Below are positions 2,907 through 51,904 of a stretch of DNA of 64,000 bases, piece by piece (positions within the stretch are counted from its first letter, which is position 1; each line of letters begins with the position of its first letter). The position numbers and the translations under genes are program-made. This stretch comes from Escherichia coli (lineage in GTDB: Bacteria; Pseudomonadota; Gammaproteobacteria; Enterobacterales; Enterobacteriaceae): assembly GCF_003334405.1 (NCBI RefSeq), contig NZ_QOWM01000010.1, one strand, 5' to 3'. Under the pieces are notes generated by a model that ran no database searches, was not told where the DNA came from, and worked only from the letters and a program-made list of their open reading frames with translations.

Positions 2907-4214
<1,308 letters not shown>

Positions 4215-5170: not shown

Positions 5171-5749
5171 ATGTTCAAAAAAATCCTCTTCCCGTTAGTT
5201 GCTCTGTTTATGCTTGCAGGATGCGCAAAACCGCCAACAACTATTGAAGTTTCCCCGACGATTACACTGCCACAGCAGGATCCAAGCCTGATGGGCGTCA
5301 CCGTAAGCATTAATGGTGCCGATCAGCGTACCGATCAGGCGCTGGCAAAAGTCACCCGCGATAATCAAATCGTTACCCTGACCGCCTCCCGCGATCTGCG
5401 TTTCCTGCTGCAAGAAGTGCTGGAAAAACAGATGACCGCGCGTGGTTACATGGTTGGTCCGAATGGCCCGGTTAATCTGCAAATCATCGTTAGCCAACTG
5501 TATGCTGACGTGTCCCAGGGCAACGTGCGCTACAACATCGCGACCAAAGCGGATATCGCCATCATCGCTACCGCGCAGAATGGCAACAAAATGACCAAAA
5601 ACTATCGTGCCAGCTACAACGTTGAAGGTGCGTTCCAGGCCTCCAACAAAAATATCGCCGATGCGGTTAACAGTGTGCTGACCGATACCATCGCTGATAT
5701 GTCTCAGGACACCAGCATCCACGAATTCATCAAGCAGAACGCGCGTTAA
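5171..5749 (+). CDS. yajG: lipoprotein YajG (192 aa)
   Basis: ORF track 5012..5749; trimmed to ATG at 5171 giving MFKKILFPLVALFMLAGC (signal peptide plus lipobox LAGC). Confidence 0.9.
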   Translation: MFKKILFPLVALFMLAGCAKPPTTIEVSPTITLPQQDPSLMGVTVSINGADQRTDQALAKVTRDNQIVTLTASRDLRFLLQEVLEKQMTARGYMVGPNGPVNLQIIVSQLYADVSQGNVRYNIATKADIAIIATAQNGNKMTKNYRASYNVEGAFQASNKNIADAVNSVLTDTIADMSQDTSIHEFIKQNAR

Positions 5750-49312: not shown

Positions 49313-50224
49313 ATGCTGTGGTTCAAAAATTTAATGGTTTACCGTCTTAGCCGCGAGATTTCGCTGCGTGCAGAAGAGATGGAAAAACAGCTAGCCTCGA
49401 TGGCATTTACCCCATGCGGCAGCCAGGACATGGCGAAGATGGGCTGGGTTCCTCCGATGGGATCGCACAGCGATGCGTTAACGCACGTTGCCAATGGTCA
49501 AATTGTTATCTGCGCGCGCAAAGAAGAAAAAATCCTCCCGTCTCCGGTGATTAAACAGGCGCTGGAAGCGAAAATCGCCAAACTGGAAGCGGAACAGGCG
49601 CGTAAGCTGAAGAAAACCGAAAAAGATTCGCTGAAAGACGAAGTGCTGCACTCTCTGCTGCCGCGTGCTTTCAGCCGTTTTAGCCAGACAATGATGTGGA
49701 TCGACACGGTTAACGGTTTGATTATGGTGGACTGCGCCAGTGCCAAAAAAGCGGAAGATACGCTGGCATTACTGCGTAAAAGCCTGGGGTCGTTACCGGT
49801 TGTACCATTGAGCATGGAAAACCCGATTGAACTGACGCTGACCGAATGGGTTCGCTCCGGTAGTGCGGCACAGGGCTTCCAGCTGCTTGATGAAGCCGAG
49901 CTGAAATCGTTGCTGGAAGATGGCGGCGTGATCCGCGCGAAGAAACAAGATCTGACCAGCGAAGAGATCACCAATCACATTGAAGCCGGAAAAGTGGTGA
50001 CTAAACTGGCGCTCGACTGGCAGCAGCGCATTCAGTTTGTGATGTGCGACGATGGTTCGCTCAAGCGTCTGAAGTTCTGCGACGAGCTGCGCGATCAAAA
50101 CGAAGATATCGACCGTGAAGATTTCGCCCAGCGTTTTGATGCCGATTTCATCCTGATGACTGGTGAACTGGCAGCGTTAATTCAAAACCTGATTGAAGGA
50201 TTAGGTGGCGAAGCACAACGTTAA
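49313..50224 (+). CDS. rdgC: recombination-associated protein RdgC (303 aa)
   Basis: ORF track 49241..50224 trimmed to ATG 49313 ([15 protein letters not shown]). Confidence 0.92.
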
Positions 50225-50242
50225 TTGCTGATTTTCCTTTAA

Positions 50243-50275
50243 TGCCGGATGCGACGCCTGCCGCGTCTTATCCGG
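50243..50275. repeat. REP palindrome after rdgC
   Basis: GCCGGATGCGACGCCTGCCGCGTCTTATCCGGC. Confidence 0.6.
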
Positions 50276-50381
50276 CGTACGAAGCCACACCAGGCATATA
50301 ATTATTCGCTACGGCGAGCAATAATTTTTAGCGCAGCAATATTATGCGTTTTACGCTGTAACTTGCTCCATGGACGTTGTG

Positions 50382-50732
50382 TCATTGTTTTTCCTCAAGC
50401 CGGTGACGCGCTTCACTGCGAATTTTCCGCGTTGCCCCGGTTTTCACTAAATCACGTAACAGCGAAAGATCGGGTTGTTCGACAAATAAGAGTAATGATG
50501 GATCCTCTTTTAACCACGCCGTTTTCACATCGGCAGCCAGCTGTGGATTATTAATAGCCAGCGACCGATCCTGAGGCTCAGTCAATGTCGTTAACAACAA
50601 CGCCGGGGTATGTGCGTTGCGCAATGCCGTTTGGCGTAAATGATCATTGCGACTTTGCAGCAATGCACGCCACCATTCATCATCTGATTTATCTTTTATC
50701 GTAGCCAGTTCCGCAACAATATCTGGAGATCT
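50382..50732 (-). pseudogene. ykiA-like ORF remnant lacking a canonical start codon
   Basis: 117-codon open frame (stop to stop); the only start-like codon is TTG at 50661..50663 (track 93 aa), with no ATG or GTG; no recognisable domain; AT-rich flank 50664..50870. Probably the K-12 locus I recall as ykiA, uncertain. Confidence 0.4.
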
Positions 50733-50870
50733 TCACTGATATTTATATCAACCTTGATAAATTATGAATATATCGGAAATTGAAAAAATCGCAGCAAAGG
50801 AAATATTATTATGGGCTAAAGAAAGGATATTTCAGAAAAATGCCCTCCCGTTCAAGGGGAAGGCGAGGAA

Positions 50871-51155
50871 TTACAGATAGCGGCACAGATAAGAGGTGGG
50901 TTCGGCAACTTGCAGATGAAACTCACGGTGACCGGGAACATTAAACACCGAACCGGCTTCATACACCTGCCAGTCGGTCGCGTCAGGCAGTAACACATTC
51001 AGCGCGCCACTGATTACCGTCATCTCTTCCGGCTCAGCGGTGCTGAAGGTGTATTCGCCTTCAACCATAACACCCACGCTGGCGCGACCAGTGCTGCTGC
51101 TGGAAAAGCCGATTGATTTCACTTTGCCGGAAAAGTACTCATTACTTTGAAGCAT
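50871..51155 (-). CDS. ppnP: pyrimidine/purine nucleoside phosphorylase PpnP (YaiE)
   Basis: ORF track 94 aa ([17 protein letters not shown]), cupin-like. Confidence 0.93.
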
Positions 51156-51226
51156 AAACTGGCCCTGTTTGGTAGTTGAACATCTACTTCACTATAGGGG
51201 CCAGAGGCGCTGGCTGTCACGCAAAA

Positions 51227-51904
51227 TTACACCAGTAATTCCGCAGCCAGCCGTGCAATCAATACGTTAGACAGCAAGACAGGAACATCGAGCTGTTTTT
51301 GCAGTAAATCGCGATGACGTTGGTGAAATCCTAAACAATCCAGCATGATGACATCAGCCCCTTTTGCCAGTAATTCTTTCCCGGCATCAATGATTTTTTG
51401 TTCTGAATCATGAATGGGGTTACCCAATGAAAATACCGGCGATTTCTGCAAAATTTGCCATTTTTGCGCCTGAACGGGCAGCATCTCCTCAACCGGAACG
51501 ATAACCCCCACCTGATGATCTTCAACAATAGAGGAAACCAGTGGAGGCAATATTCGCGACGGCTCAAGAAAGATCGTATTACGCGCAGTCATACTACTAA
51601 TGTTTGCTGTACTCATTAATAAAATGACGTCATAACCCTGATTATCGAGCACTTCAACCACACCTTGCAGGTCACGCTCCACTTTGCGACGCGAAACATG
51701 GGCCAGCTGGTTGTCATTTAATAATGTGAGAATGGTGTCTTCGCCTGCTTCTGGCGCGTACTCCGCCATCACTTCTTCACGACTTAACTTCCCCAGCAGG
51801 CTATGATGGGAAATATTATCTTCGTCAATGTATTCCGTCAGGAGCGGCAAAACTTCCTGCATAGGTACAATGCCGATGGTCAGGATCGCCAACGACGCAC
51901 TCAT
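51227..51904 (-). CDS. aroM: protein AroM
   Basis: ORF track 225 aa, recognised as AroM; downstream of yaiA-aroL on the same strand. Confidence 0.93.

Follow-up and report, generated by a model that had tools for sequence, protein, structure and literature searches.

The window (the whole stretch of DNA analysed here, 64,000 nt of Escherichia coli contig NZ_QOWM01000010.1) carries, between rdgC and ppnP (which ends at position 50871), a frame on the minus strand that is open from a TGA at 50733..50735 to a TGA at 50382..50384. The original prediction had described it as a frame of 117 codons; its coordinates hold, and the count comprises 116 sense codons (50385..50732) plus the terminal stop. 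It had also been described as devoid of ATG and GTG, with a TTG at 50663 as its only start-like codon, which is correct only in part. The span 50385..50732 has no in-frame ATG, and the TTG (50661..50663) is the first ATG, GTG or TTG past the upstream TGA, lying 24 codons inside the frame and opening a 93-aa ORF, but the frame also contains GTG twice (50526..50528 and 50445..50447) and another four TTG codons (first bases at 50622, 50598, 50595 and 50583). These do not alter the conclusion on the frame. A GGTGG sits 6 nt 5′ of the TTG at 50663, and an ATT codon at 50718..50720 is found 9 nt 3′ of an old weak Shine-Dalgarno sequence.

The region upstream of the TTG (50664..50870) is indeed AT-rich compared to the neighbouring genes, as had been noted earlier, with a GC content of 0.367 against 0.515 for rdgC and 0.523 for ppnP (whole window: 0.516); for 50724..50841 the value is as low as 0.271. 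The segment 50730..50841 (minus strand; GC ~27%) is collinear with, and 96% identical to, the sequence directly 5′ of the ATG of an intact gene found at the same site in other strains (locus L002, from position 5307 onwards; see below), and the in-frame TGA at 50733..50735 falls in what was the 5′ UTR of that gene. A promoter scan revealed a sigma-70-like site on the minus strand, with a −35 element CTGAAA at 50835..50830 and a −10 element CATAAT at 50813..50808. Adjacent to this segment, at 50842..50864 (minus strand), is a putative intrinsic terminator of ppnP, a hairpin with an 8-pair stem (6 GC pairs) followed by a T run (ATTTTTCTGA). By alignment, the AT-rich part of 50664..50870 is what the window has kept of the lost gene's 5′ UTR and promoter, together with the ppnP terminator. 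A transcription start has been mapped at this locus by 5′-RACE, and a lacZ fusion of the intergenic region was activated by BglJ-RcsB (PMC3950696).

Downstream, and also on the minus strand, lies the gene for a small protein of 27 aa (50302..50385; MTQRPWSKLQRKTHNIAALKIIARRSE), recognized as an ORF, labelled "protein YkiD" at 50302..50385 (−) in the RefSeq annotation of a 100% identical genome, and published: the same 27-aa YkiD is among the SPA-tag-detected small proteins of strain MG1655, located between ykiA and rdgC at 408947-409030 (PMC6001520). Because the YkiD of the window is identical to this entry beside ykiA, the frame in the window is ykiA (b0392). The ykiD ATG overlaps the ykiA stop codon (ATGA), and its Shine-Dalgarno sequence (GAGGA, 6 nt 5′ of the ATG) is located within the 3′ end of ykiA. 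Between rdgC and ykiD is a REP-type palindromic element (50230..50277, no strand assigned), an inverted copy of which is found close to mak in L002; it does not belong to the pseudogene, and the ykiA-ykiD unit ends there. With Rfam naRNA4 the element scores 27.8 bits, below the gathering score of 59.5. A permissive Rfam scan of 49800..51400 returned nothing beyond this sub-threshold REP/naRNA4 match outside the remnant, which rules out a structured RNA gene at the locus as far as covered by that scan.

The start-less frame is thus an already known and ordinary gene remnant, the annotated E. coli K-12 pseudogene ykiA. Its annotated extent is 50382..50723 (minus strand), which, according to RefSeq, Pfam and homology, comprises the terminal 113 codons and the stop codon of a gene for a 759-aa protein. 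On a 100% identical genome, RefSeq labels 50382..50723 (−) as a DUF2773 domain-containing protein, incomplete and "missing N-terminus", and PGAP calls a pseudogene for ykiA in all genomes inspected. Many E. coli genomes match the 671 bases around the frame at 100% identity, and 5,425 of the 5,426 complete genomes contain this sequence. In its location, flanked by ppnP and rdgC, in the orientation of ppnP and directly upstream of ykiD, the frame agrees with ykiA, which occupies 342 nt in MG1655 (NC_000913.3, 408609..408950) on the same strand as in the window; MG1655 coordinates were obtained as 459332 minus the window coordinate, a relation derived from the published ykiD coordinates (PMC6001520). 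In an earlier study, ykiA is listed as coding for 113 aa, with no function known (Table 1 of PMC3950696), whereas current RefSeq has it as a pseudogene.

The translation of the frame matches the whole length of the Pfam model DUF2773 (PF10971; model positions 1-81 of 81, residues 36-116, 155 bits, E = 4.9e-46) and has no match in NCBIfam. A search for a full-length homologue, suggested along with the original prediction, was successful: an E. coli protein of 759 aa is 93% identical to the translation over its residues 647-759 (E = 4e-70). The 81 positions of DUF2773 correspond to the last 81 residues, so that the model was apparently built on the truncated form from K-12. The true DUF2773 family would be a protein of ~760 aa with a signal peptide, a beta-helix and an alpha-solenoid, and with at least 169 detectable relatives.

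The intact version of the locus is found in O157:H7-type strains (e.g., FORC_044, locus L002), which carry two genes with a 4-nt overlap between ppnP and rdgC. The first gene (2,280 nt) codes for the 759-aa DUF2773 protein (WP_120795310.1), the second (450 nt) for a 149-aa protein of the SF0329 family. The 759-aa protein begins with MNRINILVICMVLFFMTGNACA/TEW, which we take to be a Sec-type signal sequence on the basis of general signal-peptide features. An AlphaFold2 model (alignment from the HMMER relatives; pLDDT 91.2, pTM 0.79) shows a signal helix (residues 2-17), a beta-helix (68-176) and an alpha-solenoid (~240-759). The protein is accordingly modelled as an exported protein with a Sec-type signal peptide, a beta-helix and a long LRV/HEAT-like alpha-solenoid. 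The best Foldseek matches of the model in the PDB are the PP2A A subunit, importins and designed armadillo proteins, with TM values of 0.12-0.30, and nothing about function can be inferred from such low-TM, generic HEAT/ARM solenoid matches.

A word-indexed search with the 759-aa protein found close relatives in Escherichia only, plus one protein with 49% identity, while an exhaustive HMMER search detected 169 relatives, of which ~40 are full length at 20-35% sequence identity. NCBIfam has no match for the 759-aa protein, and a PDB sequence search with both intact proteins gave nothing significant. PADLOC returned no family for either intact protein at E up to 0.1, which rules out a known anti-phage defence system. 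In Escherichia sp. E4930, the ppnP-rdgC site likewise encodes a full-length orthologue, with 73% identity (dS ~1.3); dN/dS between the two is 0.12 for the whole gene and 0.24 over the last 113 codons, and the intact gene is, by this comparison, under purifying selection. A Superficieibacter-like contig carries an orthologue at a different locus (sprT-galP). An SF0329 neighbour is absent beside both the E4930 and the Superficieibacter-like orthologue, and also beside two distant relatives, which rules out that DUF2773 and SF0329 form an obligate two-gene system.

With a GC content of 0.424 and a GC3 of 0.407, the intact gene differs from its neighbours (GC 0.51-0.56, GC3 ~0.57), and its close relatives have a narrow and patchy distribution, being restricted to Escherichia and the single Superficieibacter-like contig with its different locus. 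On these grounds, horizontal acquisition of the intact gene, as proposed in the original prediction, is plausible. The copy of strain E4930 at the same ppnP-rdgC site, with dS ~1.3, implies that any acquisition would predate the diversification of E. coli, so that the proposal can apply to an ancient event only.

The sequences of the window and of L002 were compared base by base at two deletion junctions. Junction B is at the 5′ end of the ykiA remnant. The equivalent of L002 3368-5306, which includes the ATG of the intact gene (L002 5303-5305), is missing from the window, apart from 18 nt (50712..50729, minus strand; CGCAACAATATCTGGAGA on the plus strand) that exactly match L002 4220-4237. 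This is a segment from the middle of the intact gene, codons ~357-361 (SPDIV; SPDIVA being residues 357-362). One end of this segment runs into the C-terminal part at an imperfect 12-bp repeat, CGCAA[A/C]AATATC, the copies of which are 864 bp (288 codons) apart in the intact allele; its other end is joined to position −2 relative to the deleted ATG, directly at the 5′ UTR. In the net result, 5 nt stand in place of 1,939 bp of L002, and the K-12 allele is devoid of codons 1-646, and with them of the ATG, the signal peptide and the beta-helix domain. Junction B is common to all nine sampled truncated alleles and is also found in L054 and L004, and all decayed forms inspected have, by alignment, this one junction in common. 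It may have originated from two deletions (864 bp and 1,070 bp) rather than from one complex event, probably by slippage or illegitimate recombination at short direct repeats. No intermediate allele was seen in which the in-frame loss of 864 bp between the CGCAA[A/C]AATATC repeats is the sole deletion.

Junction A is within ykiD, at a 10-bp direct repeat (50354..50363, minus strand; CGCTGTAACT, the minus strand of which codes for KLQR/QLRR). The repeat reads CGC[T/C]GTAACT, and the flanks of the deletion align to L002 2626-2635 and 2998-3007. The SF0329 gene has lost 372 bp (124 codons) here with the frame preserved, and YkiD joins residues 1-11 of a 151-aa SF0329 protein to its final 16 residues. 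By this alignment, ykiD is evidently the in-frame deletion remnant of a 151-aa SF0329-family gene. The K-12 C-terminus (KIIARRSE) is identical to that of the SF0329 proteins from Shigella flexneri and from Escherichia sp. MOD1-EC7003, whereas in the O157 allele a 1-nt insertion alters the C-terminus (149 aa vs. 151 aa for the unframeshifted protein). In L054, an intact 151-aa SF0329 gene adjoins the same ykiA remnant.

The intact SF0329 protein is assigned to its family with 93.7 bits (cut-off 60) and matches Pfam PF25753 and NCBIfam NF049912; for the 27 aa of YkiD there is no HMM match in NCBIfam. The family is widespread and unusually conserved (533 matches, ~60% identity across Bacteroidota, Firmicutes and Proteobacteria). 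Five SF0329 neighbourhoods were inspected, one of them on two contigs (L016/L017). On the latter, small co-directional gene arrays are found beside a tyrosine recombinase, together with Imm10. In L085, the cluster contains a SUKH-3 protein (weak match) and a protein of >2,000 aa. WGR+DUF4240, presumably immunity-associated, is among the neighbours in L015. The neighbourhoods in L086 and in E. coli are uninformative. Known immunity families thus occur in two of the five neighbourhoods, and a toxin partner was identified in none of them. These gene neighbourhoods suggest that SF0329 may be an orphan immunity-type protein. The AlphaFold2 model of SF0329 has a pLDDT of 79, and Foldseek found no match for it in the PDB at E ≤ 0.001.

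The various allele states were counted in 5,426 complete E. coli genomes. The truncated type is found in 4,544 and the full-length type in 444 of these; the truncated type that keeps a full-length SF0329 gene accounts for ~57 (by subtraction, 501 minus 444), and ~400 have the SF0329 gene only (estimated from evenly spaced rows). Expressed as shares, ~83% of the genomes carry the double-deletion allele and 8% the intact one, the rest being further-decayed forms. The ykiA remnant has been cleanly deleted in ~7% of the genomes, and in a few an IS1 replaces the whole unit, which is a fourth allele state. In the two examples of the SF0329-only allele (L004 and L006), the remnant is gone and the junction-B sequence CAGTTCCGCAAAAAATACCTGGAGATCTTCA is directly beside the SF0329 ATG, which indicates that this allele derives from a truncated one; the SF0329 gene is frameshifted in both.

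The order of the two deletions follows from Escherichia sp. MOD1-EC7003, in which junction B occurs beside a complete SF0329 gene (151 aa): the long gene was truncated before the deletion within SF0329 took place. When a 17-mer spanning junction B was searched against 100,044 GTDB species representatives, 65 matches were obtained, the only one in Escherichia being MOD1-EC7003; the other 64 are taken as chance matches, with ~35 expected for a 17-mer in 298 Gb. The locus is therefore an ordered decay series, which leads from the intact allele to a truncated one with intact SF0329, then to either ykiA′-ykiD or SF0329-only, and to IS1.

Constraint was analysed for nine truncated alleles with 93%-100% identity, with dN/dS computed by NG86. 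The ykiA remnant has a nucleotide diversity of 0.045, a dN/dS of 0.55, a ratio of nonsynonymous to synonymous changes of 27:17, and a pN/pS of 0.47. The corresponding values are 0.013, 0.02, 3:31 and 0.03 for rdgC; 0.0125, 0.05, 2:7 and 0.08 for ppnP; 0.027, 0.08, 9:34 and 0.08 for aroM; and 0.058, 0.31, 4:3 (plus one stop) and 0.35 for ykiD. For the part of mak that was covered, diversity is 0.015 and dN/dS is 0.06. Diversity of the remnant is thus 3.5 times that of the flanking genes, and its dN of 0.044 (vs. 0.001-0.003 in the neighbours) corresponds to amino acid change that is 17-30 times faster. The dN/dS of the remnant is also above that of the intact orthologues, both for the whole gene (0.12) and for the same 113 codons (0.24). 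The frame is open in eight of the nine alleles; in L011, a 1-nt insertion near the 5′ end destroys it. Three of the nine have a one-codon deletion. In five, the upstream TGA is changed to CGA, which extends the frame by 5 codons without a start being gained. The pN/pS of 0.47 is nominally below a neutral expectation of equal rates (binomial P = 0.013), in a calculation that ignores transition bias, inherited polymorphism and recombination with intact alleles. From these comparisons, constraint on the remnant appears to be strongly relaxed, if not demonstrably zero, and weak residual constraint may persist, given that nine alleles are a small sample.

We thus consider it very probable that ykiA is a non-functional 3′ remnant of the gene for a 759-residue exported protein, produced by repeat-associated deletions. 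In an ancestor of most E. coli strains, deletions at short direct repeats would have removed codons 1-646 including the ATG, leaving 18 nt of mid-gene sequence at the junction and fusing the last 113 codons to the gene's own promoter and 5′ UTR. Later, in the K-12 lineage, the 372-bp in-frame deletion between 10-bp repeats would have shrunk the SF0329 gene to the 27-codon ykiD. The promoter activated by BglJ-RcsB would still transcribe the ykiA-ykiD unit, in which the ykiA frame, having no efficient start, is presumably not productively translated; low-level translation from the TTG at 50663 or the ATT at 50718..50720 may occur. As ykiD retains its original Shine-Dalgarno sequence and ATG, with the ATGA overlap, it is translated although ykiA is dead. 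While homology, junctions, order of events, allele frequencies and relaxed constraint were observed directly, activity of the promoter is taken from PMC3950696 and synthesis of YkiD from PMC6001520. The original prediction of a decayed gene rather than a functional CDS is thereby borne out: RefSeq has a pseudogene where O157-type strains have an intact gene of 2,280 nt, the first 646 codons are lost, diversity is increased 3.5-fold, dN/dS is 0.55 compared to 0.02-0.08, one of nine alleles is frameshifted, and ~7% of the genomes have deleted the remnant.

Three other readings of the frame were weighed. That it is a chance ORF in an intergenic spacer, without coding ancestry, would fit its lack of an ATG and its position between two convergent or tandem genes, which is the sole point in favour; the match to the C-terminus of an intact 759-aa protein from the same locus (E = 4e-70), together with the whole-model match to DUF2773 (E = 4.9e-46), refutes this reading, which can be dismissed. 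It is very improbable that the remnant is a functional CDS which, expressed from the BglJ-RcsB promoter and starting at the TTG at 50663 or the ATT at 50720, codes for ~93-111 aa comprising the last LRV-type helical repeats. Such a product corresponds to helices that are well folded in the model of the intact protein (pLDDT 87-96 in 10-residue blocks from residue 641 to the C-terminus), the promoter is active (PMC3950696), and SD-like sequences are close to both codons. However, the TTG is an ancestral Leu codon that is also present in the intact gene, and the frame does not open with a canonical start codon (no ATG, the first TTG being 24 codons in). The ancestral protein is exported, and the fragment would end up in the wrong compartment because the signal peptide has been lost. 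While eight of nine alleles keep the frame open, three of them with an in-frame 3-nt deletion rather than a frameshift, and pN/pS is 0.47 with a naive P of 0.013, the ninth is frameshifted near the 5′ end, amino acid change is 17-30 times that of the neighbours, and purifying selection comparable to that on the neighbours or the intact orthologue was not found among the nine alleles. Clean deletion in ~7% of the genomes, IS1 in place of the remnant in others, and the PGAP pseudogene call in every genome inspected also argue against a functional CDS.

Persistence due to a non-coding role, either as a long 5′ leader for ykiD or as AT-rich DNA bound by BglJ-RcsB or H-NS, is hardly probable. Translation of ykiD implies transcription through the remnant from the mapped promoter, and both the ATGA overlap and the ykiD Shine-Dalgarno sequence are inside the 3′ end of ykiA, but ykiD itself evolves fast (4 nonsynonymous changes and one early stop among the nine alleles) and is missing from alleles that have a complete SF0329 gene or have lost the locus. 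The diversity of the remnant is the second-highest of the local segments, after ykiD, and Rfam has no match in the region other than the sub-threshold REP element outside the remnant. A promoter region with 27% GC would be in line with other BglJ-RcsB targets, which are H-NS-repressed; the H-NS repression reported in PMC3950696 concerns targets other than ykiA. Decay of the 759-aa protein gene to a non-functional remnant is thus the preferred explanation.

A separate matter is whether YkiD, or the ykiA-ykiD transcript, has gained a function of its own, as a dated micro-protein born from gene decay. We regard this as a distant prospect. YkiD fuses the first 11 and the last 16 residues encoded by an immunity-like SF0329 gene and is, in this reading, kept expressed from the orphaned, BglJ-RcsB-regulated promoter of the dead ykiA, with intermediate alleles still segregating in E. 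coli. As it stands, a catalogued new small protein appears to be a deletion remnant that is translated via a surviving ribosome-binding site, which calls for caution with small-protein catalogues. The ykiA locus itself is of little discovery value, being an annotated pseudogene that behaves as one, and the process is ordinary gene decay, which the promoter and the downstream ribosome-binding site have survived. The segregating decay series might be used to study the erosion of dead genes and the persistence of promoters.

Compared with K-12 MG1655, the ykiA of the window is the same object, with the same position, strand and 342-nt length, and there is no difference. With the 759-aa protein of O157:H7-type strains it shares the locus, the last 113 residues (93% identity) and the promoter region (96% DNA sequence identity), but the window is devoid of residues 1-646, except for five mid-gene codons at the junction; the start codon, signal peptide, beta-helix and most of the alpha-solenoid have consequently been lost. 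The intact protein resembles LRV (PF01816/PF25591) and HEAT/ARM proteins in being modelled as a helical-repeat solenoid, and some of its distant relatives match such models (LRV_2 in 6 and LRV in 4 of 41 family members, HEAT_2 in some relatives). It is unlike them in that the E. coli sequence itself is below significance with LRV or HEAT models (HEAT E = 8.5) and has low TM values to solved structures; the libraries searched hold no named counterpart that combines a signal peptide, an N-terminal beta-helix and a solenoid. YkiD is without the central 124 residues of the SF0329 family, which include almost all of its invariant positions, and is a remnant rather than a member of that family. [quoted passage not shown] Another K-12 locus activated by BglJ-RcsB, molR, is also disrupted and thus provides, like ykiA, an example of a regulated promoter that outlives its disrupted gene (PMC3950696).

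The Pfam DUF2773 match lies at window positions 50385..50627, within the pseudogene ykiA, and at the equivalent positions 3029..3271 of L002, the O157:H7-type locus which carries the intact gene. The Pfam family (81 positions) spans exactly the C-terminal 81 residues of the 759-aa protein encoded there, and all of these residues fall inside the K-12 ykiA fragment. The DUF2773 "domain" seems to be an artefact that arose because the family was seeded on the truncated ykiA pseudogene. The actual DUF2773 family is a protein of ~760 aa which consists of a signal peptide, a beta-helix, and an alpha-solenoid; 169 relatives of the 759-aa protein were detectable using HMMER. A full-length homologue (49% identical) is encoded on the Superficieibacter-like contig L013 (8001..10241), where sprT and a galP-like MFS gene flank it. 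This contig encodes a MetK identical to the Superficieibacter electus protein. The chromosomal site of the homologue differs from that in Escherichia, which is consistent with an independent insertion.

The published small protein YkiD (ykiD, window 50302..50385, minus strand) consists of residues 1-11 of the 151-aa SF0329-family protein joined to its last 16 residues. It was created when 372 bp of the SF0329-family gene were deleted in frame between 10-bp repeats. ykiD is not an independent gene but a remnant of that gene. Among nine YkiD alleles, four amino-acid changes and an early stop are found. The SF0329 gene downstream of ykiA is likewise decaying in several lineages, as its alleles show. 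The O157-type allele differs from those of K-12, Shigella, and Escherichia sp. MOD1-EC7003 by a 1-nt insertion at the 3' end of the gene (about position 2596 of L002), due to which its C-terminus reads NYCPP in place of the family consensus KIIARRSE. In the SF0329-only alleles (L004 and L006), which have lost the ykiA remnant, the gene is frameshifted close to its 5' end.

A REP-type palindromic element (window 50230..50277) is located between rdgC and ykiD, with a second, inverted copy near mak. It matches Rfam naRNA4 (CssrE) with a sub-threshold 27.8 bits (gathering score 59.5). On the plus strand, a 38-aa ORF with an ATG start (window 50764..50880) is antisense to the ykiA promoter region and extends into the 3' end of ppnP. 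This ORF and a sigma-70-like site on the same strand (TTGAAA-18-TATTAT, 10/12; window 50780..50809) probably reflect chance in AT-rich DNA.

Among the neighbouring genes, aroM (window 51227..51904) has a pi of 0.027 in the nine sampled genomes, about twice that of rdgC, ppnP, and mak (0.013), and a dS of 0.10 compared to about 0.06; despite this raised diversity its dN/dS is low (0.08). In E. coli O121 GTVSS-020 (L003, 1..459), the fructokinase gene mak carries an internal stop and is listed as a pseudogene in the annotation.

The SF0329 family maintains ~60% sequence identity across phyla. At the loci L016 (1726..12483), L017 (635..8756), L085 (1..12331), and L015 (3238..6471), its genes are housed in arrays of small co-directional genes which adjoin a tyrosine recombinase. 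Among their neighbours are genes for Imm10, Macro (weak hit), SUKH-3 (weak hit), and WGR+DUF4240 proteins. These neighbourhoods resemble recombinase-associated orphan-immunity gene islands.
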